NCBI GenBank assembly: GCA_964388155.1
Contig: CAYLYH010000003.1
Coordinates: 24,268 to 88,267, forward strand
Source of the DNA: an uncultured bacterium
GTDB lineage: Bacteria; Fidelibacterota; Marinisomatia; Marinisomatales; JACNKV01
Direction: 5' to 3'
Length of the DNA stretch: 64,000 nt
In this document: positions 21,706 through 47,453 of the stretch, piece by piece
Position numbering within the stretch: the first letter of the stretch is position 1
Layout of the letters: each line of letters starts with the position of its first letter
Translations under genes and position numbers: made by a program
The notes under the pieces: model-generated
What the model was told of the DNA's origin: nothing
The model's database searches: none
Seen by the model: the letters and a program-made list of their open reading frames with translations, nothing else

Positions 21706-24700
21706 CTATTGTCCGCTTCCGTCAACCCAAACATTTTTCTTTCCAAAAATATTTCGAATCTCAGCGAAAAATTCTTTATCTGAAGTGACACGCACATTAT
21801 GTGCCAGTACACGCTGACCTTTTCCTCCGTTTGGGATATGGAACACAATACTACACTCGCCTTTGTGTTTTTCAGCAATTGAAAAAAGTTGGTTAATTTC
21901 TTTCTCTGTGGTCTGAGTATTGTGCAGTCGAATATTAATTCTCTTTGAAAAATAAGTTCTGGCATTTTTTAACAACACAACTTCTTCCGCAATAAGTTTC
22001 AAATCGCTAAAATCCGTGCTGTCGGTTGGCTTTCCCGTCACAAAGATAATTTGGTCTTTCTCAATCAAGGATTTATACTTTGCAAACGTATCGCTGAACG
22101 CCAGTATTTCAACCTGTCCACCAAGGCAATCCAACTTAAAAAAGGCCATTTGTTTTTTCTTGCGGTCAAAGTGATACCGGAGTTCACTGATCATCCCCCC
22201 AATCCTGACATTTTCTTCTTTGCTGACTTTTAATTTTTCCGAAAAATCATAATTACTGAATTCTTCAAGGTCGTCAGCATATTTCAACAAAGGGTGACCT
22301 GACACGTAAATACCCAGAACTTCTTTTTCTTTATCTAGTGATTCTTGTTCATCCCATGGGTTTGCATTTGGCAGTGTTGGTGTTTTTATGAGTTCATGAT
22401 CGTGAGCGCTTTGTCCAAAAATATCCACTTGGTTTGTGTTTGATCCGTTTTGAATTTGCTGCCCGTATTTTATTGCATCATCAATGGATGCAAATTTTTC
22501 TGCTCGTGTTCCTTCCAGTGAGTCCATTGCCCCCGCTTTCACAAAGCTTTCAAGAACTTTCTTATTGACGGTACGTTGATCTACTCTCGAACACACTTCA
22601 AATATGGTATTGAATCTCCCGTCTTTTTCTCTGTTTTCTATGATTTTTTCAAGTGCTTTTGTTCCGATATTTTTAATGGCATTTAAACCGTAAGAAATTA
22701 CCCGGTCATTAATCGGATGAAATTGTACATTCGACACATTTATGTCCGGAGGATTCACTTCAATCTTCATTTTTCGACATTCGTTAATCAAAATCACAAC
22801 GCGGTCGATGTTTGTCATTTCACTTGTGAGATTCGCGGACATAAATTCAGCTGGATAATGTGTTTTTAGCCAAGCGGTTTGATAGGCAACATAGGCATAA
22901 GCGGTGGAGTGGCTTTTGTTAAATCCATATTGTGCAAATTTATCGATTAAAGCAAAAATGTCTTTTGCTTTTTTTTCCTTAATTCCCCTTTTTACAGCTC
23001 CTTTAATAAATTTAACAGAAATTTCATCCATGAGCGTTTTAATCTTTTTCCCCATCGCTCGTCGCATAAGGTCAGCTTCTGCAAGTGAAAATCCTGCTAT
23101 TTTGTTCGCAATTTGCATCACTTGCTCTTGATAAACAATAATACCGTACGTTTCTTGTAAAATTAATTTTAAATCCTTGTGAATATATTCAATCGCTTTT
23201 TTTCCGTTTTTCCTTGCAATAAATTTGTCAATGTTCTGCATAGGGCCCGGACGGTAAAGGGCGTTCATTGCAATCAGATCTTCGATTACCGTCGGGTTTA
23301 ATTTTTTTAAAAATTCACGCATACCTGACGATTCAAACTGGAAAACACCAATCGTCTGTCCTTTTGCAAACAATTTATAGACGACCGAATCATCCATGGT
23401 TAATTCATCAATATTTACATTTATTCCACGATCCTTAAGAAGTCTAACAGCTTTGTCAATGACAGTGAGGTTCCGTAGCCCTAAAAAGTCCATCTTAAGA
23501 AGCCCAAGTTCTTCCAACCCCTTCATATCGTATTGGCTGGTTCCGTCTCCCTGCTGAGATCGATAGAGTGGTACATAATTCGTCAAGTGCCCGGGCGCAA
23601 TCACGACGCCGGCGGCATGAATGGAGGAATGTCGATTCATGCCCTCAAGGACTAAAGCATGCTCAATGAGTTCTTTATAGTCGCCATCCGCCATCTTTTT
23701 CAAGTCGGGATTTCGTTTCAGAGCATCTTTTAAGGTGATGTTTAACTCAGTTGGGACGGCTTTTGCAATTTTATCCACATCGCCGAAAGAATAACCCATA
23801 ACACGTCCAACATCCCGAACAACTTGCTTGGCTTTCATTTTTCCAAACGTAATAATTTGTGTGACGGATCCTTCACCATATTGTTCTTTAATATAATCAA
23901 TAACTTCACCTCTTCGCTCGATACAAAAATCGATGTCAATATCCGGCATACTAATTCGTTCAGGATTTAAAAACCGCTCAAACAAAAGATTGTATTTTAA
24001 CGGATCAATGTTTGTGATTCGAAGGGCGTAAGACACAATACTCCCTGCAGCAGACCCCCTGCCCGGGCCAACGGGAATATACTTGTCTTTTGCGTACCGG
24101 ATAAAATCTTCTGTAATAAGAAAATATCCTGCGAATCCCATCTTGCGTATTACATCAAGTTCATGATCCAGCCTGTCATTAATTTCAGGTGTTATTGTTT
24201 CATATCTGGTCCGGAGACCTTTTTCACACAAATCCCGTAAATACGCATCGGGGTCTTTGGTTTGAGATTCCACCGGTATATTATATTTCGGCAAATGATA
24301 TTCTCCCATAGAAATCTCAAAATCGATACTATCAGAAATACGTCGTGTGTTTTCAATGGCTTCCGGCGCATCTTTAAACAGCGTCTGCATTTCTTCTTGG
24401 GTTTTTAAATAAAACTCTGATGTAGAATATCTCAGGCGATTTGGATCATCCCGGTCTTTTCCGGTTCCAAGGCAAATAAGAATATCATGAGCCTCCGAAT
24501 GTTCTTTTTTTGCGTAGTGAGTGTCATTGCTGGCGACAAGAGGTAGCCCGGTTTCTTTCGCCAAGATTATCATCCGTTCAATATTTGTTTTCTCTTCCGG
24601 AATTCCATGGTCTTGTATTTCAAGATAATACCGATTAGGAAATATCTCCGCATACTCACGTGCTACGGCTTTGGCTCCCTCAAAATCATTTTGAAGAAGT

Positions 24701-32672: not shown

Positions 32673-33791
32673 ATGTGTGATAAAAAAGTATTCTTTCTTG
32701 TCGCCGGTGAAGAATCAGGTGACTTGCATGGTGCAAAACTGATTGAAGCCCTGCGTGTTGAATTTCCGAATTCTGAATTTATCGGTCACGGCGGTGAAAG
32801 AATGCGTCGTCAAGGCATGACCATCCTTGAGCATATTTCATCATTATCAATGATGGGGTTTACAGAGGTTATTCGTCATTTACCGTATATAATGCGTGTT
32901 ATGAAAAAAACACTTAACAAAATAAAAAAGGTTAACCCCGACCGAATTATTTTAATTGACTACCCGGGATTCAATCTCAGGCTTGCAAAAAAACTGGCGG
33001 GATTTGATATCCCCGTAATCTATTTTATTTTACCGCAAGTTTGGGCATGGAAAGAAAAACGTATCAACATTTTGAAAGATTACACAGACCAACGCCTAAG
33101 TATTTTTCCGTTTGAGAAGCCTTGGTTTACTGAGCGTGACATCGATGTGGATTTTATCGGACATCCTTTTTCTATGCTAAAACCGGCAAACATTACCAAA
33201 GATGGGTTTTTTGCAAAACACAATCTCAACCCAAACAATCCTTTGCTCGTTTTGCTTCCGGGTAGCCGACAGCAGGAGATAGGACGTCACTGGAAGGTGT
33301 TCTTAAAAACCGCTCAGCGGTTAAAAGACTCATATCCTTTTTTGCAGATTATTGTCGGTAAAGCCGAAGGAATTACGTTAAATCCGCTCCCGGAATATAT
33401 TCAAACAGAAACAAATTCCCGCTTGACGTTGCAATTCGGAACGGCGGCGTTAGCATCCTCCGGGACGGTTACCTTAGAGGCAGCTGTTTTGGATTGCCCG
33501 GTTGTCGTAACCTATAAACTGTCTGCCATAACGTGGCAGATTGCCAAACGAATTGTGAGGGTGAGGTATGCTTCCATCGTCAACCTAATCGCCGACAAAG
33601 AGGTTGTCCCTGAATTCCTCCAAGAGGACATGACTCCCGACAATCTTTTCAACGCCCTAACACCGCTCGTGTCTAATACTCCTCAAAGGCGAAAAATATT
33701 GACAGACTTTTTGGCTATACGCAGTCGTCTTGGGAAAAAAGACGTCTATCAACATGCTGCTATATTGATTAGAAAGAAACATCTGTCATGA
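32673..33791 (+). CDS. lpxB: Lipid-A-disaccharide synthase
   Basis: FLVAGEESGDLHGAKLIEAL N-terminal signature; length and C-terminal blocks typical. Confidence 0.9.
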   Translation: MCDKKVFFLVAGEESGDLHGAKLIEALRVEFPNSEFIGHGGERMRRQGMTILEHISSLSMMGFTEVIRHLPYIMRVMKKTLNKIKKVNPDRIILIDYPGFNLRLAKKLAGFDIPVIYFILPQVWAWKEKRINILKDYTDQRLSIFPFEKPWFTERDIDVDFIGHPFSMLKPANITKDGFFAKHNLNPNNPLLVLLPGSRQQEIGRHWKVFLKTAQRLKDSYPFLQIIVGKAEGITLNPLPEYIQTETNSRLTLQFGTAALASSGTVTLEAAVLDCPVVVTYKLSAITWQIAKRIVRVRYASIVNLIADKEVVPEFLQEDMTPDNLFNALTPLVSNTPQRRKILTDFLAIRSRLGKKDVYQHAAILIRKKHLS

Positions 33792-34432
33792 TAAACAAAT
33801 TTTTCTATACTATTAAAGTCATTATAGTAACCTGGTTAATCCGTTTTTTCTATAAAACCAACCATTGGAACATCCAAGGGCGAGAACAAATAGACGAATT
33901 ATTGAAAGAGGGGCGTTCCATCATCATTGCAAGCTGGCATGGACAGTTATTGCCAACGTTTATGAGTCTTGCAGAATGCGGATATTACGGCCTCGCCGGA
34001 ATGCATAAAGATGCCGAATTGATTTCTCAATTTGGGGAGCGCATCGGATGGAAACTCCTGCGCGGGTCAAGCTCCGATCGAGGAAAAGAAGTCTATTTGG
34101 AAATGGTCAAGGTGCTAAAAACTCCCGGATCTGTCGTTGCGTTGACTCCGGATGGACCGAAAGGCCCAGCCCGCATCCCAAAACCGGGGGTGATTCGCGC
34201 CGCACAAAAAACAGGAGCAGTAATCATCCCGGCAATGGGGCAATCTACCAAACATTGGGCATTTACAAACTGGGATACCTTTTACGTTGCCAAACCGTTC
34301 GGACGGATTGAAATGCTTTACGGTGAACCCCTTTATTTTTCAGAAGAGGACGATTATAAGTCCTGCGCAGAAACATTGCGGAAGGCCTTAAATGCTTTGG
34401 CAGAAACTGTGGATAATTCAATAAAAATATGA
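33788..34432 (+). CDS. DUF374 family protein (lysophospholipid acyltransferase-like)
   Basis: ASWHGQLL and TPDGPKGPA motifs. Overlaps lpxB and lpxK by 4 nt each. Confidence 0.8.
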   Translation: MINKFFYTIKVIIVTWLIRFFYKTNHWNIQGREQIDELLKEGRSIIIASWHGQLLPTFMSLAECGYYGLAGMHKDAELISQFGERIGWKLLRGSSSDRGKEVYLEMVKVLKTPGSVVALTPDGPKGPARIPKPGVIRAAQKTGAVIIPAMGQSTKHWAFTNWDTFYVAKPFGRIEMLYGEPLYFSEEDDYKSCAETLRKALNALAETVDNSIKI

Positions 34433-35460
34433 TGCGGTTTTTCCTGTTTCCGTTTTCAGTTACCTATGCTTTCTTTGTCGGTTTTAGAAATCTGTTTTAT
34501 GATATTGGCTTCTTCAAAACAAAAATACTACCGTGTTGTGTCATCAGCATAGGAAATCTCACAGTAGGCGGCACCGGAAAAACACCCACTGTAATCGCGT
34601 TGGCAAAACATCTTTTGAAGTGCGGAATCTCTGTGGTGGTTCTGAGCCGCGGTTACGGTCGTAATTCAACCGGGACAGTTGTCGTTTCTGATGGAAACAA
34701 TATTTTGCAGGATTGGCAAACCGCCGGAGATGAACCGGTTTTAATAGCAGAAAAATTACCCGACGTTCCGGTGATTGTTGATGAAAATCGATTCCGCGGT
34801 GGAATGGAGATTGTTAAGAAATTCAATCCGAAGGTGATTATTTTAGATGACGGCTTTCAGCATCGCGCTCTTCATCGGGATTTAAATATCCTGTTGGTTA
34901 ACAGCCAATTTCACCGCAAAGATAAATACTTATTGCCTACCGGAAATCTCAGAGAATCATGGGGTCAGATAGCTCGTGGTGACATGATTTTTCTAACTAA
35001 AACAAATTTATTTGAACAAAATAGCAGGTTGGCTGCCAAATTAAATTCGTTTAACAATCCGGTTGTTAGCACGACGCTGGAATTAGATATAAAACTGAAT
35101 ACTGGTTTCAATCGGGATTTACCATTAAGTACTCTGAAAAATAAACGTGTTCTAGCTGTATCCGCATTGGGATCACCAAAAGGATTTGAGCAATCGTTGT
35201 CAGAAACCGGTGCTGTCGTTGCCGATCACTTAGTGTTTCGGGATCATCATAAATTCACCCAAGCAGATATTGAAAAAATTCACAATAAAAAGGTGAACAC
35301 AGGTTCAGAGTTGATCATTACGACGGAAAAGGATTTTATTAAACTAAAACACCTTGTTCCGAAAAACCTTACAATCTATGCTCTGCCAGTTATAGTTGTG
35401 ATTCCTGAAGAAATTTTGACAACAATCATTTCACAGATACCCAATAACCTTAGCTCCTGA
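34429..35460 (+). CDS. lpxK: Tetraacyldisaccharide 4'-kinase
   Basis: SIGNLTVGGTGKTP P-loop and the DDGFQH motif. Confidence 0.9.
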   Translation: MMRFFLFPFSVTYAFFVGFRNLFYDIGFFKTKILPCCVISIGNLTVGGTGKTPTVIALAKHLLKCGISVVVLSRGYGRNSTGTVVVSDGNNILQDWQTAGDEPVLIAEKLPDVPVIVDENRFRGGMEIVKKFNPKVIILDDGFQHRALHRDLNILLVNSQFHRKDKYLLPTGNLRESWGQIARGDMIFLTKTNLFEQNSRLAAKLNSFNNPVVSTTLELDIKLNTGFNRDLPLSTLKNKRVLAVSALGSPKGFEQSLSETGAVVADHLVFRDHHKFTQADIEKIHNKKVNTGSELIITTEKDFIKLKHLVPKNLTIYALPVIVVIPEEILTTIISQIPNNLSS

Positions 35461-38667: not shown

Positions 38668-40098
38668 ATGAATGAGCCTGAATACAAACCAAAGATTTTA
38701 ATCATTGATGACGAGCAGTCCGTGCTTAATTCACTTAACCGAACTTTACGACACAATTTTGATGTGCTGTTGTCATTAAGCGGAGACGCAGGGCTTCAAC
38801 TCCTGCGGGAACAGGAAATATCCGTTATTCTTGCCGACCAGCGGATGCCAAAAATGTCCGGTGTGAGGTTTTTCCAAAAAGCACAAACCATCCAACCGGA
38901 TGCGGAACGAATTTTGATCACCGGGTATTCGGATATCGAAGCGGTCATTGTCGCAATCAATTCGGCAAATGTTTTTTACTATATTCATAAACCTTGGGAG
39001 CCGGATGCGTTGCGCATTATTGTGAAACGTGCCGCTGATCACTATCGATTAGTTCAGGAAAATCGCTCTCTGATGAGTAAGCTTCAGCAAACCAACCAAA
39101 CACTTCAAAACGAAAATACGCTGTATAACCAAGAGCTTCAAAAACACTATCAGTTTGATCAGATTATTGGAAAAAGTCCGGCGATGGAGGCTGTCTTTGA
39201 CCTCATGCGCAAAGTGATACCGACCGACGCAACCGTATTGCTGCAGGGTGAAACCGGCACCGGAAAGGAGCTGGTTGCCCGCGCCATCCATTTCAGTGGG
39301 CCGCGAAAGAAAAAACCGTTCGTAACACAAAACTGCGCCGCTCTCCCAGATACACTTCTCGAAAGCACTTTATTCGGACATAAAAAGGGGGCTTTTACAG
39401 ATGCGGTGGCAAACAAAAAAGGACTGTTTGAATTGGCGGATGGCGGTACGATTTTCTTGGACGAAGTTGCTGATATGTCCCCCGCCATGCAGCAGCGTTT
39501 ATTGAGGGTACTGCAAGAAGGGGAGATTCAACCTCTTGGTTCTGAGAAAATTAAAACAGTGGATGTTCGCATTATTTCCGCAACCCATCATACTTTACTC
39601 GAGGATGTAAAAACCGGAAATTTTAGGGAAGATCTGTTTTACCGACTCAATGTTTTTCCCATTACGTTGCCGGCATTACGTAACCGCCGGGAGGACATTC
39701 CGCGGCTGGTTAATCACTTTGTAAAAAAATCCGCTTTGCGAATGGGGAAAAACATCACCTCTGTTTCGGCTGAAAGTATGGCAAGGCTTGTGAATATGGA
39801 TTTCCCGGGAAATATCCGTGAGCTGGAAAATATGATTGAACGTGCCGTTGTGCTTGCCGAGAATAACACCGTTCTTTCTTTTGACAAAGAAGACACACCT
39901 GCGTCACACATTTTATTTCCGTCGGATACTTCAGCAGAACTTAAACTCAGCGAATTGACGGACAATATCGAAAAACAATACATCAAAAAAACGCTGACAA
40001 ACTGCAAAGGAAATATCAGTAAAACCGCAAAGATTCTTGGGCTTAGCCGCGCGGGTTTATATAAAAAAATGAAACGTCTTGAACTGATAAGTAGTTGA
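38668..40098 (+). CDS. Sigma-54-dependent response regulator (NtrC family)
   Basis: REC domain (IIDDE, ILADQRMP). AAA+ GETGTGKELVARAIH, with GAFTDA in place of GAFTGA. C-terminal Fis-type HTH ISKTAKILGLSRAGLYKKMKRL. Confidence 0.9.
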   Translation: MNEPEYKPKILIIDDEQSVLNSLNRTLRHNFDVLLSLSGDAGLQLLREQEISVILADQRMPKMSGVRFFQKAQTIQPDAERILITGYSDIEAVIVAINSANVFYYIHKPWEPDALRIIVKRAADHYRLVQENRSLMSKLQQTNQTLQNENTLYNQELQKHYQFDQIIGKSPAMEAVFDLMRKVIPTDATVLLQGETGTGKELVARAIHFSGPRKKKPFVTQNCAALPDTLLESTLFGHKKGAFTDAVANKKGLFELADGGTIFLDEVADMSPAMQQRLLRVLQEGEIQPLGSEKIKTVDVRIISATHHTLLEDVKTGNFREDLFYRLNVFPITLPALRNRREDIPRLVNHFVKKSALRMGKNITSVSAESMARLVNMDFPGNIRELENMIERAVVLAENNTVLSFDKEDTPASHILFPSDTSAELKLSELTDNIEKQYIKKTLTNCKGNISKTAKILGLSRAGLYKKMKRLELISS

Positions 40099-40485
40099 TT
40101 GCCTGTCCGCCCCATGGCTGGGTGAGTGGTAATTGGTGAATTTGTTATTGTCGTAACGTAGGGCCTGCCCGACAAAGAATGCAGGCGGGAAGACCCCGTG
40201 TTTTTTACGGGAGTGAGAACACAACCTTTTTTTAAGGACACGTTGTCCTGTAAAATAAATGACATTTGCAGGATAAAGTGTTTTGCTTCAGGGTTGTCTT
40301 TTTGAATATCATTTCTTCACCTTGGCAAGGTTGCAACAATAAATTAATATGTCTACTCTGTAGACTAGTTTATATGTGTATATGTATACTATGTTTACAT
40401 TGTGTTGTTTGTAAAATAACACGGGTATCCTATTATCTCTCTATTGAGCAGCGTGTTATGGTGCTTTCTAGGTTTATTTTAACTT

Positions 40486-40501
40486 TGGCATATTTATTGC
40501 G
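40486..40501 (+). promoter_or_regulatory. Sigma-54 (-24/-12) promoter TGGCATatttaTTGCg
   Basis: GG at 40487-88 and GC at 40499-500, with exact consensus spacing. Lies 34 nt upstream of the ATG at 40535 and 388 nt downstream of the activator gene. Confidence 0.65.
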
Positions 40502-40534
40502 TCTAACTAAGGTGAAGGAATCACAGGATTTACA

Positions 40535-42958: not shown

Positions 42959-43070
42959 TTTTTTTCCGCCACAGAGACACAGGGGGGGGTTATTTAGCCT
43001 TTCAAAGGTTTTTATCCAAAAAGCAGGCGGATAAAACAACCTTTGAATCGTTTTTTGTCCTCGGTGGGGT

Positions 43071-43727: not shown

Positions 43728-46700
43728 TTAAATCTGTGATATTCCCCATGCAAACATGACGCCGACAAAAGTAAGCATCAGTGGCCAGCTTGTATTCACA
43801 AATTGGCGTGCACTCGGATCTTCGAACACATGCACCTGAAACTCATGCGCTGTTGCAGCACCATGTTCATCGATGGCCATGATGATAATATCATTCGGAC
43901 CGCGCTGATTGTTTCGTGGTTTCCATTTTAATTTACCGGTTCGCTTGTTAAACTTCGCATATTTCGGGAGTCGAATCGGACGATAGGTCACCTTATCACT
44001 GTTTAGATCCTCGGCGACAATTTTGTAACGATATTCATGTCCGGTAAGTGCTACCGGTTTTGGTTTCGAAATAATTGTCGGATTGATATTGACAAACACT
44101 TTTCCGGTCTGGACATCTTCTGAGTACCCGTCTGACGCTTTCACTTCAAATACTTGATAATCAATCTGGTCAGATTCCGGCGTCCATAGGATTTTTCCCT
44201 CCCGGCTAATTTGCATATTTCTTGGGGATTTAATGAGCGAATACGTTAATTCTGCGTTCTGATTATTGTCTTCAACTTGAAGTGTATATTTAAACACATC
44301 TCCGACCAGCGCCATCGCGGGCGGGTTGGAAATAATTGTCGGGATCTGGTTGACATACAACTCATAGGTTTGCTCGTCTTTGCTGTATCCGTCCGATGCC
44401 ATCACGGTTATTGTGTGAATATCTACCTGATTGGGTGTGGGTGTCCATGAAATCGTTCCTGTCAGCTCATTCACTATCATGCCGTCCGGAAAGTCCAAAA
44501 GTGTATAGCGAGTGAGCGGCTGACGTTCAACGATGACTTTAGGCGGCTTTCCTTTGCTTCCTTTAAACAGCTCCCAGAGGACATCTTTCACTTTCACCGT
44601 GCGGTCGTCGATCGTTTGTAAAATTACTACCAGCCTATCTTCCTCGTAAAAAAGAGAATGTACATATTTTTTTAAATTTAGACGGGAAACGCTTGCGGTA
44701 TCCGGTGTGTTTGTCCCTGTTAAATATACAGTTTCAGCATATTCCCAATCTCCGATATATCGATCGATATTTTCACGGTAAACATCATCCGTAATGTTGA
44801 CTTTATACATGTTCACAGACTCCACATCTTCTACTGTTACCACGCGATTCATCGGGAGAAGCGATCCCTTATTTCGGTCAGATGTTAAAAGTGAATACGT
44901 ATATTTATCTCCGGTGGTAGCGGTAAGTGTTGGTAATGAAACAATTTGTATCGGTGCATTTACAAAGAAATCTGATTCAATTATTCGGGTGGTTTTTCCG
45001 TCGCTGACTTCAATCATTAAGTGTGAAAAGTCCGCTTCTCTCCATGAGGGTTCCCACAATAATCTCCCGGAATACGGATCCATCCGCATTCCCGGCGGAA
45101 GTTCAATGGAGGCATAGGTGATTTCATCCAAAACATTGGGATCAAAAATCTCGATCTGAAAACTCCATGTTTCCCCGGCACGAACCAAGACCATCGGCGG
45201 TGGCGCTGTTACCACAATGGGCGGATGGTTCACAAACAGCTCCACGCGTTGTGTGTCTGCTGCGACGCCGTGCCGGACAATAATGGCGGTTTTCTGTGTG
45301 TCTATCTGCGTTTCTGTTGGTGTCCACGCAACAAGTCCGTCGGTGTTGATGGTCATTCCCTCCGGTGCATCTATCAATTCAAATTCCAGCGGATAATTTA
45401 AGTTTTGATACCACACGTCCATTTGATATTCATACGGTTCACCAACCCATAGCTCTCCGGACGGCTCGGATAAAATCACCACGCCTGCCCGGGCAAATAA
45501 TTTAAATTCCTGTGCCGCGCGGTCAAATCCATCCGTTGCCACCAATCGCACAGGATATATATCCACATGAGCACTGTCGGTTTGCCATGTAAGTGTGTTA
45601 TTGTCCAATACCATTTCATCGGGAGCAACTTCCATGTCTATCTGAATATTCGCATCAACGTTTCGGTCTTGAATAAGAGGCTCATACGAAAACAATGTGT
45701 TCGCTACAAATTCCGTTCCAGTGGGCTCTGAAATAAATACAGGCGGGTCGTTGACATAAATCCACAGTCGTTCATCGTAACCCTCTAATTGCGGAATAAC
45801 TTGGTACGCAAGGGAATCTTCTTCGTTTTGAACAATGGTTTCCCCGATTTTCATTTCGATATGATACGCCAACTGGAAGGCACCCAAGTCTTTTTCATTC
45901 GGGACCCATTGAATCGATTTGGTTTCATAGTGAAAAAACATGCCTTTAGGCGGCGGCTGTAGCCAGCGGAAACTGTAAAATATTTCTGCTTCATCTTCGG
46001 GGATGGTATACGCAAAAGACTTATTCACCGGTAAAACATGTCGTGGAAGCACATTTTCAGGGAGGGGTTGCCCGGTTGTTTTTTCCGGTTTGGACACTTG
46101 CGGGAGCGTGAATTGATCCATGGGAATTTCCGGAAACGTTTCTAATAGCTTTTCCTGTTCAATAACATCACTAATTATGACGTCAGGTTTTTCAGGCGGA
46201 GATATCGGTTTTTTCCCAAGGTCGGTAAGGAATACTGTGTTGGTGGTGCCGTTCCATCCTGCGGCAAGAATAGATCCGGTATAGGTGCCAAGACGGACCA
46301 TCGGCAAAATTGAAAATATCTGCATGGTTTCATTACCGCCGTCCAGCGAAAAATATTCTGCCGACGGCTCAATGCCGTTTTTCGTTCCGGAGAATAAAGA
46401 GACCATGTTCATTTCCCCGGAAACAAGAATGATATCTGTATAGCCGTCTTGGTCTACATCGGTGATTTTTAAATCAGAAACAGGACCTCCCTCTACGGGA
46501 ATTTCTTCTATAACAACCTTGTCCGGTGTCATGGTTAAGGCAGCGATGTGCCCGGACTGAAAAGACAAAACCACGTCCGTAAATCCATCAGCATCCCAAT
46601 CCGTTTTTGTGGTTTTCAGCGGAAGAAATCCATTAATACCGTCGATTTTTAACCGGGTTCCCTTACTTGGGATAAATGTACCTTGAACATTATAAAACGG

Positions 46701-47453
46701 TTGTGCTTTTAGGAAATTTCCTTCCGGGCTGAAGACAATCAGGTCATCAAAACCATCGTGATCATAATCCACAACATCTACAAAGATAAATCCCGAACCA
46801 GAGCGGAGAAAGGTGGGGGTTAGCTGTTCAATGATAGAAAGAGTTCCTTCAGCGTCCAGATCAATGATAACAACGCCGCGCGGTGGAATTCCCAGGGAAG
46901 CAACAACCTCTTCATCTCCATCAGCATCAATATCTAAAAGTTCAAAGTTATGACACCGAAGAAATTTTTTATTTCCAGCAAGGTTCAGCGTAACGTCCGG
47001 GATTTCTTCAAATCCGTTGTCAAACCATCGATACACAAAAAAATGCGGCTGGAGAATATCTTCTGACCCAGAACCGGACACATTGACACCAACAATTAAT
47101 TCCGGATATGTATCTCCGTCAATATCGCCAATATCAACACCGATAAAACTCCCCAACGCTCCATCCGGAATATTTAAGTCCCATAATAACTCCTGCCTCC
47201 CGGCATCATCAGTTTCATAATAACGAATAAACGATAAAAAGCGGTTTTCAGAAGGCTGTTCTTCAATTGTAATGTATTCCAAATGTCCATCGCTATCTAA
47301 ATCATACGTCCCCTCAAGATGAAGGATTTTTGCATCCCCGGCAAAAACGAGCGAAAAGAATAAGCTCATCATGAACAATGTGCGTGTTTTCATGCCTGGC
47401 TTTTGTGGGCGCTGGTTGGTTTTAAGGGCGATTTTTTCGAAGATATCCATCAT
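43728..47453 (-). CDS. Large surface protein: FG-GAP/VCBS repeats, tandem cadherin-like/putative-Ig domains, C-terminal TM anchor
   Basis: DLDSDGHLEY, DIDGDTYPELIV, VDYDHDGFDDLIV and similar repeats. Repeated ...Y.Y.L...D.....LTYSL...P.GM.I...G.L.W.P modules. C-terminal WPLMLTFVGVMFAWGISQI. The start may be Met21 (about 47393). Confidence 0.8.
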   Translation of the reverse strand: MMDIFEKIALKTNQRPQKPGMKTRTLFMMSLFFSLVFAGDAKILHLEGTYDLDSDGHLEYITIEEQPSENRFLSFIRYYETDDAGRQELLWDLNIPDGALGSFIGVDIGDIDGDTYPELIVGVNVSGSGSEDILQPHFFVYRWFDNGFEEIPDVTLNLAGNKKFLRCHNFELLDIDADGDEEVVASLGIPPRGVVIIDLDAEGTLSIIEQLTPTFLRSGSGFIFVDVVDYDHDGFDDLIVFSPEGNFLKAQPFYNVQGTFIPSKGTRLKIDGINGFLPLKTTKTDWDADGFTDVVLSFQSGHIAALTMTPDKVVIEEIPVEGGPVSDLKITDVDQDGYTDIILVSGEMNMVSLFSGTKNGIEPSAEYFSLDGGNETMQIFSILPMVRLGTYTGSILAAGWNGTTNTVFLTDLGKKPISPPEKPDVIISDVIEQEKLLETFPEIPMDQFTLPQVSKPEKTTGQPLPENVLPRHVLPVNKSFAYTIPEDEAEIFYSFRWLQPPPKGMFFHYETKSIQWVPNEKDLGAFQLAYHIEMKIGETIVQNEEDSLAYQVIPQLEGYDERLWIYVNDPPVFISEPTGTEFVANTLFSYEPLIQDRNVDANIQIDMEVAPDEMVLDNNTLTWQTDSAHVDIYPVRLVATDGFDRAAQEFKLFARAGVVILSEPSGELWVGEPYEYQMDVWYQNLNYPLEFELIDAPEGMTINTDGLVAWTPTETQIDTQKTAIIVRHGVAADTQRVELFVNHPPIVVTAPPPMVLVRAGETWSFQIEIFDPNVLDEITYASIELPPGMRMDPYSGRLLWEPSWREADFSHLMIEVSDGKTTRIIESDFFVNAPIQIVSLPTLTATTGDKYTYSLLTSDRNKGSLLPMNRVVTVEDVESVNMYKVNITDDVYRENIDRYIGDWEYAETVYLTGTNTPDTASVSRLNLKKYVHSLFYEEDRLVVILQTIDDRTVKVKDVLWELFKGSKGKPPKVIVERQPLTRYTLLDFPDGMIVNELTGTISWTPTPNQVDIHTITVMASDGYSKDEQTYELYVNQIPTIISNPPAMALVGDVFKYTLQVEDNNQNAELTYSLIKSPRNMQISREGKILWTPESDQIDYQVFEVKASDGYSEDVQTGKVFVNINPTIISKPKPVALTGHEYRYKIVAEDLNSDKVTYRPIRLPKYAKFNKRTGKLKWKPRNNQRGPNDIIIMAIDEHGAATAHEFQVHVFEDPSARQFVNTSWPLMLTFVGVMFAWGISQI

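Follow-up and report, generated by a model that had tools for sequence, protein, structure and literature searches.

The locus and its predicted promoter

We analyzed a 64-kb stretch of a Marinimicrobia (SAR406/Fidelibacterota) contig, referred to here as the window. A gene for a sensor histidine kinase and one for a bacterial enhancer-binding protein (bEBP) of the NtrC class are followed there by a 436-nt intergenic region and by the genes for a lipoprotein and a FadL-like outer-membrane barrel, all on the + strand (Table 1). Twelve independent genomes, from Marinimicrobia and Calditrichota, keep this gene order. The intergenic region contains a predicted sigma-54 promoter element of the −24/−12 type, TGGCATATTTATTGCG, located 34 nt 5′ of the lipoprotein ATG (40535) and co-oriented with it, and, further upstream, two copies of a conserved dyad that are likely to be binding sites of the adjacent activator. 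A preliminary description of this DNA had reported the promoter motif together with three upstream inverted repeats (IR1, IR2 and IR3). All four were found at the positions it gave, and the stretch upstream of the promoter is markedly AT-rich, as described, with a GC content of 0.28-0.34 at 40300-40500 versus about 0.37-0.59 in the flanking genes.

Inspection of the element demonstrated that GG (40487-40488), GC (40499-40500) and the canonical spacing of the consensus TGGCAC-N5-TTGCW are all intact; the conserved block around it extends from 40483 to 40505. Counting of matches in the window was not informative: the consensus with up to two mismatches was found 25 times versus 29.5 expected, which is the level of chance, and TGGCA-N6-TTGC occurs once, with an expectation of 0.68. 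Because these counts are near chance, the significance of the site must rest on its context and on comparison with other genomes.

Two matrices were applied to the window. In the generic −24/−12 matrix, whose frequencies approximate those of the compilation of Barrios et al. (1999), TGGCATATTTATTGCG ranked second of about 128,000 positions and was the only strong match in any intergenic region, the other high scorers being inside open reading frames (ORFs). The top match, at 23751, is antisense within a 1149-aa ORF and was judged to be due to chance. The second matrix was built from 31 orthologous promoters, with the window and a close relative excluded. It placed TGGCATATTTATTGCG first with 23.2 bits, the next best of the same positions reaching 13.2 bits, so that the site stands far above the background of the window, by a margin of 10 bits. 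A second TTGGCA-containing sequence in the intergenic region, TTGGCAAGGTTGCAA (40322-40336), was rejected as a promoter, as its spacing from GG to GC is 3 nt short; it sits in a 37-nt insertion that is missing from the close relative L163.

Comparative data were obtained starting from the FadL-like protein, which has hundreds of homologues; 166 further loci were retrieved from genomes and metagenomes, the metagenome scan adding few close relatives among the matches listed. The invariant CYTQ lipobox of the lipoprotein was then used as an anchor and gave 48 non-redundant lipoprotein genes from several phyla of the Fibrobacteres-Chlorobi-Bacteroidetes (FCB) group. The motif TGGYAY-N5-TTG was found 25-52 nt 5′ of the ATG in 33 of the 48 loci and at none of the 335 control ORF starts taken from the same loci; there are only 47 occurrences of it across 983 kb. 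Within 120 nt of the ATG it is present in 35 loci, and three further loci have it with one mismatch in the same place. Several orthologues come close to the perfect sigma-54 consensus and score 18-19 bits. Among these are loci L164-L168, from a second Marinimicrobia lineage, which have the same operon preceded by near-perfect motifs such as GTGGCACGGGATTTGCAC (19 bits) and TTGGCACAGAATTTGCAC. The reading of TGGCATATTTATTGCG as a sigma-54 promoter, as put forward in the preliminary description, is supported by both matrices and by the orthologous intergenic regions.

The same motif could also be explained as the site of another factor, for example a sigma-70-family or extracytoplasmic function (ECF) sigma factor, or as an operator, and the presence of the −12 C in just 10 of the 33 orthologous motifs is in favor of such an explanation. 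We consider it very improbable. GG and TTG are invariant and separated exactly as for sigma-54, a bEBP gene adjoins the operon in many loci, several orthologues reach the high scores given above, and the site in the window has the full GG/GC pair. Other promoter types are rare in the 48 upstream regions, the Bacteroidetes-type TAnnTTTG being present in seven and a sigma-70-like pair in one.

If the promoter has canonical sigma-54 geometry, transcription would start near 40512, giving a 5′ untranslated region of about 23 nt, in which an AGGA Shine-Dalgarno-like element is present at 40525-40528.

Table 1. Positions of genes and sequence features at the kinase-activator locus (window numbering)
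Feature	Position	Strand	Remarks
lpxB	32673-33791	+	
214-aa ORF	33788-34432	+	between lpxB and lpxK
lpxK	34429-35460	+	
Sensor histidine kinase, 1046 aa	35489-38629	+	Pfam matches
NtrC-class sigma-54 activator (bEBP), 476 aa	38668-40098	+	Pfam matches
Intergenic region, 436 nt	40099-40534		
Pair of GC-rich hairpins 3′ of the bEBP gene	40164-40212	+	terminator-like match 40185-40199; −20.5 kcal/mol, z only −1.6
Upstream activating sequence 1 (UAS1; distal, putative), GTCTACtctGTAGAC	40351-40365	.	perfect dyad GTCTAC-tct-GTAGAC, 8/8 match
Upstream activating sequence 2 (UAS2; proximal, putative), GTATACtatGTTTAC	40384-40398	.	8/8 match
Predicted sigma-54 −24/−12 promoter element TGGCATATTTATTGCG, TGGCAT-ATTTA-TTGCG	40486-40501	+	motif, matrices, orthologue conservation
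Predicted transcription start	40511-40513 (near 40512)	+	canonical sigma-54 geometry, 12 nt 3′ of the −12 C
CYTQ lipoprotein, 343 aa	40535-41566	+	first gene of the putative regulated operon
FadL-fold outer-membrane barrel (predicted), 456 aa	41588-42958	+	second gene of the putative regulated operon
Weak terminator-like hairpin 3′ of the operon	42984-43003	+	

Conserved dyads upstream of the predicted promoter

Alignment with the orthologous intergenic regions revealed a shared 15-bp dyad, GTnnAC-N3-GTnnAC, which is usually present in two copies. In the window these are UAS1 and UAS2, the only two 8/8 matches in 64 kb. Their centres are about 154 and 121 nt, respectively, upstream of the predicted start and 33 bp apart; the pair was also detected as a direct-repeat family (D1) with a spacing of 33. 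For a matrix trained solely on orthologous sites, the best match in the window is GTATACtatGTTTAC, with 18.7 bits. A dyad matching at no fewer than seven of the eight positions was found 60-140 nt 5′ of the promoter GG in 12 of the 15 orthologous regions, versus 0.19 expected and a maximum of three in 1000 shuffles; a dyad with all eight positions was found in seven of the 15, versus 0.007 expected.

The distance from the dyad centre to the GG of the promoter, for the distal and the proximal site respectively, is 129 and 96 nt in the window and in L163, 127 and 94 nt in L003, about 128 and 104 nt in L008, L026, L033 and L085, 131 and 107 nt in L009 and L015, 130 and 106 nt in L012, and 129 and 105 nt in L101. 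In the Calditrichota loci L032, L038 and L088 the most distal site is located at 107-109 nt. The inner bases of the half-sites vary between loci, with the symmetry kept (GTCTAC/GTAGAC, GTATAC/GTATAC, GTTAAC/GTTAAC). In the window and in L163 about 250 additional nt are present between the stop codon of the bEBP gene and the dyads, with the distance to the promoter unchanged. Thus, across the loci compared, the data demonstrate that the dyads are conserved and locked in position relative to the promoter; the adjacent bEBP would be the protein that binds them.

The additional sequence (40099-40350 in the window, 2495-2760 in L163) forms GC-rich hairpins and in L163 includes three copies of CCCGTGTG; in most orthologues the dyads follow straight after the bEBP stop codon. 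A terminator and an insertion resembling repetitive extragenic palindromic (REP) elements are both candidates for its nature. The two hairpins of the window located at 40164-40212 may, as a weak suggestion, terminate the upstream transcription unit. No RNA family was found in the intergenic region by an Rfam scan.

The preliminary description regarded all three inverted repeats as possible enhancers and rightly treated their assignment to the activator as conjecture. IR1 is the UAS1 copy of the conserved dyad and part of the likely enhancer; the second dyad, GTATACtatGTTTAC, was missed, and the two other repeats did not hold. IR2, TTTACA-n10-TGTAAA (40394-40415), is incidental, its left arm being the right half of UAS2. 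IR3, TAACACG-n28-CGTGTTA (40417-40458), is unconserved and was rejected: in L163, whose barrel protein is 89% identical to that of the window, the arms read TAATATG and CGGGTTG, with no compensation. Perfect inverted repeats with 6-nt arms number four in the AT-rich stretch versus 1.5-1.7 in shuffled sequences (p about 0.12-0.15). Since this enrichment is not significant, nothing speaks for IR2 and IR3 in their own right, and IR1 is meaningful by comparison only.

These counts raise the question of whether the promoter motif could have arisen by chance in an AT-rich spacer, with IR1 being simply a weak terminator hairpin. Not only short inverted repeats but also matches to the promoter consensus are at the level of chance, and 40351-40365 was picked out on each strand by a scan for terminators. 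This is nevertheless the least probable of the explanations considered here. The motif is conserved in different phyla, its distance from the ATG is fixed, and it is absent from all the control starts, and the margin of 10 bits was obtained with a matrix from which the window had been left out. As RNA the dyads fold weakly (−6 kcal/mol for UAS1; −2 kcal/mol, z +0.9, for UAS2), and they hold their distance to the promoter and not to the upstream stop codon. The fixed promoter distance, the symmetric covariation of the half-sites and the weak folding favor a DNA site linked to the promoter over an RNA hairpin or terminator.

Two further observations were made on upstream sites in other loci. In the Calditrichaceae loci L009 and L015 the dyads GTTAACataGTTAAC and GCTAACcccGTTAAC are present upstream of 3646, and tblastn detected no bEBP anywhere in the fetched locus; the gene for their activator may be located in another part of those genomes. 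The Ignavibacteria-type loci L034, L044, L051 and L094 have another conserved block, CTCGAGTATGC followed by CGGGCCTTCTGA, about 100-140 nt 5′ of the GG. It is found in place of the GTnnAC dyad and may be an enhancer of a different activator.

The kinase, the activator and the products of the operon

Pfam analysis of the 1046-aa kinase identified a periplasmic propeller-like domain of the FG-GAP/ASPIC-UnbV type, transmembrane segments, a GAF domain, HisKA and HATPase_c. The gene ends 38 nt before the bEBP gene, and the synteny of the two is kept in 12 genomes. The bEBP consists of Response_reg (residues 10-119), Sigma54_activat (166-332, E 9e-71), AAA_lid_14 and HTH_8 (433-471), and its translation contains a Walker A motif, GETGTGKE, and a Walker B motif, DEVAD. 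It is an intact activator of the NtrC class with a receiver (REC) domain, an AAA+ domain and a helix-turn-helix (HTH) domain, as the preliminary description had supposed for the gene next to the promoter. No other bEBP was found by a scan of the 64-kb window. To judge from this intact protein, the genome presumably encodes sigma-54.

The loop that contacts sigma-54 in this class of proteins reads GAFTDA (at 39388) rather than GAFTGA. GAFTDA is kept in the Marinimicrobia orthologues of the bEBP and GAFTGA is found in those of Calditrichota. The former is a natural variant of GAFTGA that is regarded as compatible with activation (PMC4641369). Variants of the recognition helix of the bEBP pair with types of half-site: SRAGLYKK is found with GT(A/C)TAC, SRPGLY with GTAAA-TTTAC and SRLGLHKK with GTTAAC.

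Another possibility is that the sigma-54 promoter is real and the dyads bind a different dimeric regulator, for example a repressor or a co-regulator, or that the operon is activated by a bEBP encoded elsewhere. In L164-L168 and in the Ignavibacteria-type loci the promoter is kept with neither an adjacent two-component system nor the dyad; in L164-L168 the operon instead neighbours a divergent PALP gene and the gene for a 660-aa Sigma54_activat protein with no recorded REC or HTH_8 match. The dyads of L009 and L015 without a bEBP match in the fetched locus point in the same direction. Against this, 12 of 15 regions contain the dyad together with the orthologous bEBP, at distances typical of enhancers, the paired dyads are 24-33 bp apart and resemble the tandem NtrC-type enhancers of glnAp2, HTH variants follow the type of half-site, and the locus has no further gene that would be a candidate regulator. 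We regard this possibility as distinctly unlikely.

Overall, we conclude with a probability of roughly 80% that TGGCATATTTATTGCG is a sigma-54 promoter of the lipoprotein/barrel operon, served by the two upstream sites and controlled by the adjacent kinase and bEBP. A number of observations weigh against this conclusion. Some of them concern the promoter. The preliminary description was right about the exact spacing of GG and GC and about the C to T change at position 6 (−21), which it took for the only core mismatch; a second departure from the consensus is present, as the final W is G (−11). Both departures are outside the GG/GC core. The motif is missing in 10 of the 48 loci, all of them from distant lineages. 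In the 33 orthologous promoters the position following the invariant TTG is occupied by T in 15 cases, by C in 10, by A in seven and by G in one, so that the −12 C is missing in 23, which is unusual for sigma-54; the window itself has TTGC. The other observations concern the activator. No RpoN box was found in the 64 kb of this genome that are available or in the loci retrieved for comparison. Binding of sigma-54 has not been demonstrated for VfmH of Dickeya, a protein with GAFTDA (PMC10714721). The pairing of helix variants with half-sites is suggestive and is confounded with phylogeny. Finally, no consensus site for integration host factor (IHF) with one mismatch or fewer is present between the dyads and the promoter.

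The first product of the operon is a lipoprotein with the lipobox LQGCYTQ, an acidic stretch, a low-complexity region rich in Tyr, Trp, Gly and Pro (about 10% Tyr) and a tail rich in Ser, Lys and Arg. The CYTQ lipobox is invariant in about 48 loci and the gene is always just 5′ of that for the FadL-like barrel. No match to the lipoprotein was found in Pfam or NCBIfam. Judged by their sequences, the CYTQ lipoproteins are an undescribed family.

The barrel was modelled with AlphaFold2 (pLDDT 88, pTM 0.82). In a Foldseek search the model matched BamG of B. thetaiotaomicron (9hiv_F) with E 8e-20, TM scores of 0.60/0.67 and a probability of 1.0; FadL and TodX were next (probability 1.0; PDB 3dwo and 3bs0). 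At the sequence level the similarity is marginal, TbuX and BamG each giving an E-value of about 1e-3. Scores are under the curated cut-offs of Pfam Toluene_X (27.4 vs 29.7) and of the NCBIfam BamG profile (42.6 vs 250). By sequence the barrel fits neither BamG nor the FadL transporters. The model predicts a FadL-fold outer-membrane protein with BamG as the closest solved structure, and a transporter or an accessory of the β-barrel assembly machinery (BAM) are the candidate roles. BamG is an essential FadL-family subunit of BAM in Bacteroidota, and its paralogue in F. johnsoniae, BamG2, is poorly expressed (PMC12611786).

The 214-aa ORF and the two lipid A genes that flank it, lpxB and lpxK (32673-35460), are immediately 5′ of the kinase gene. 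The gap of only 28 nt suggests that they are co-transcribed with it and that the neighbourhood is related to the envelope. According to the ORF map, the next genes after 42958 are on the opposite strand. The region 43728-47453 (−) encodes a 1241-aa protein with FG-GAP and He_PIG Ig repeats and is convergent to the operon. A homologue with 72% identity was detected by tblastn in L003, and in L163 the corresponding place is taken by a 1241-aa gene of identical domain content; syntenic loci that are more distant lack the gene.

Proposed circuit and comparison with known systems

Based on the domain content and on the arrangement of sites, the following sequence of events can be proposed. The FG-GAP/GAF histidine kinase would sense a periplasmic, envelope or extracellular cue and phosphorylate the REC domain of the adjacent activator. 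The C-terminal Fis-type HTH of the activator would bind GTCTACtctGTAGAC and GTATACtatGTTTAC, and the protein would form an AAA+ oligomer and loop over the AT-rich spacer. Hydrolysis of ATP would then remodel the closed complex of the sigma-54 holoenzyme, with transcription starting at the predicted position.

This proposal provides a concrete and testable circuit for Marinimicrobia, a lineage that is abundant in the ocean, has few representatives in culture and lacks genetics. The lineage promoter matrix and the activator-site motif can be used for the annotation of related genomes, and attention is drawn to a −12 element that may be relaxed. No literature was found on sigma-54 or rpoN in Marinimicrobia or on this operon, and FadL is not mentioned in a 2025 survey of sigma-54 regulons. 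Since the mechanism is that of the textbook sigma-54/NtrC paradigm, the result is useful and not surprising; this particular regulon is undescribed in the literature found.

A much broader picture can be drawn, which is speculative and on balance unlikely. The locus could belong to an undescribed envelope regulon spanning several phyla of the FCB group, in which an FG-GAP kinase with an NtrC-type activator, or with other activators in other lineages, conditionally switches on a BamG-like FadL-fold barrel and a disordered Tyr-rich lipoprotein, perhaps as an alternative, stress-induced accessory module of BAM of the Bacteroidota type, and in which sigma-54 tolerates or prefers a −12 element of TTGT or TTGA. 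If true, the module would have a counterpart in BamG2 of F. johnsoniae, which is silent, and the relaxed TTGT/TTGA element would mean lineage-specific −12 recognition.

Enhancers of bEBPs are dyads located about 80-200 bp upstream of the −24/−12 element, often in tandem. At glnAp2, the target of the enteric NtrB/NtrC system, the enhancer sites are near −140 and −108 with the sequence TGCACC-N5-GGTGCA, and activation involves looping and ATP hydrolysis. The locus described here is similar in its pairing of a kinase with a REC-AAA+-Fis-HTH activator, in its predicted −24/−12 promoter, in the two dyads located over 100 bp upstream with a spacing of about 30 bp, and in the proposed mode of activation. 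It differs in the sensor, which is unrelated and has a periplasmic FG-GAP/ASPIC propeller and a GAF domain whereas NtrB is cytoplasmic, and in its predicted targets, which are an outer-membrane lipoprotein and a barrel and not genes of nitrogen assimilation. The sites are GTnnAC-N3-GTnnAC and the loop is GAFTDA. In addition, the bEBP reaches the curated cut-off of none of the NCBIfam equivalogs, among them AtoC, NtrC, ZraR and GlrR; its score for NtrC is 370 vs 558.6.

The best-scoring equivalogs include AtoC and ZraR (388 and 359 bits). AtoS/AtoC and ZraS/ZraR have the same pairing of REC-AAA+-HTH_8 with HisKA/HATPase; the scores, however, are far under the respective cut-offs of 714 and 760, and neither the sensor domain nor the regulated genes are related to theirs, so that the bEBP is not a member of either group. 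The barrel stands in a similar relation to the BamG/FadL family, sharing its predicted fold and only 11-16% identity with its solved structures.

Two-component regulons of enhancer-binding proteins located beside sigma-54-dependent envelope and transport operons have been predicted in Desulfovibrio vulgaris, with natural variants of GAFTGA, GAFTDA among them, accepted as functional (PMC4641369). The circuit proposed here resembles them in being derived from comparative genomics, and differs from them in phylum, in targets and in binding motifs.

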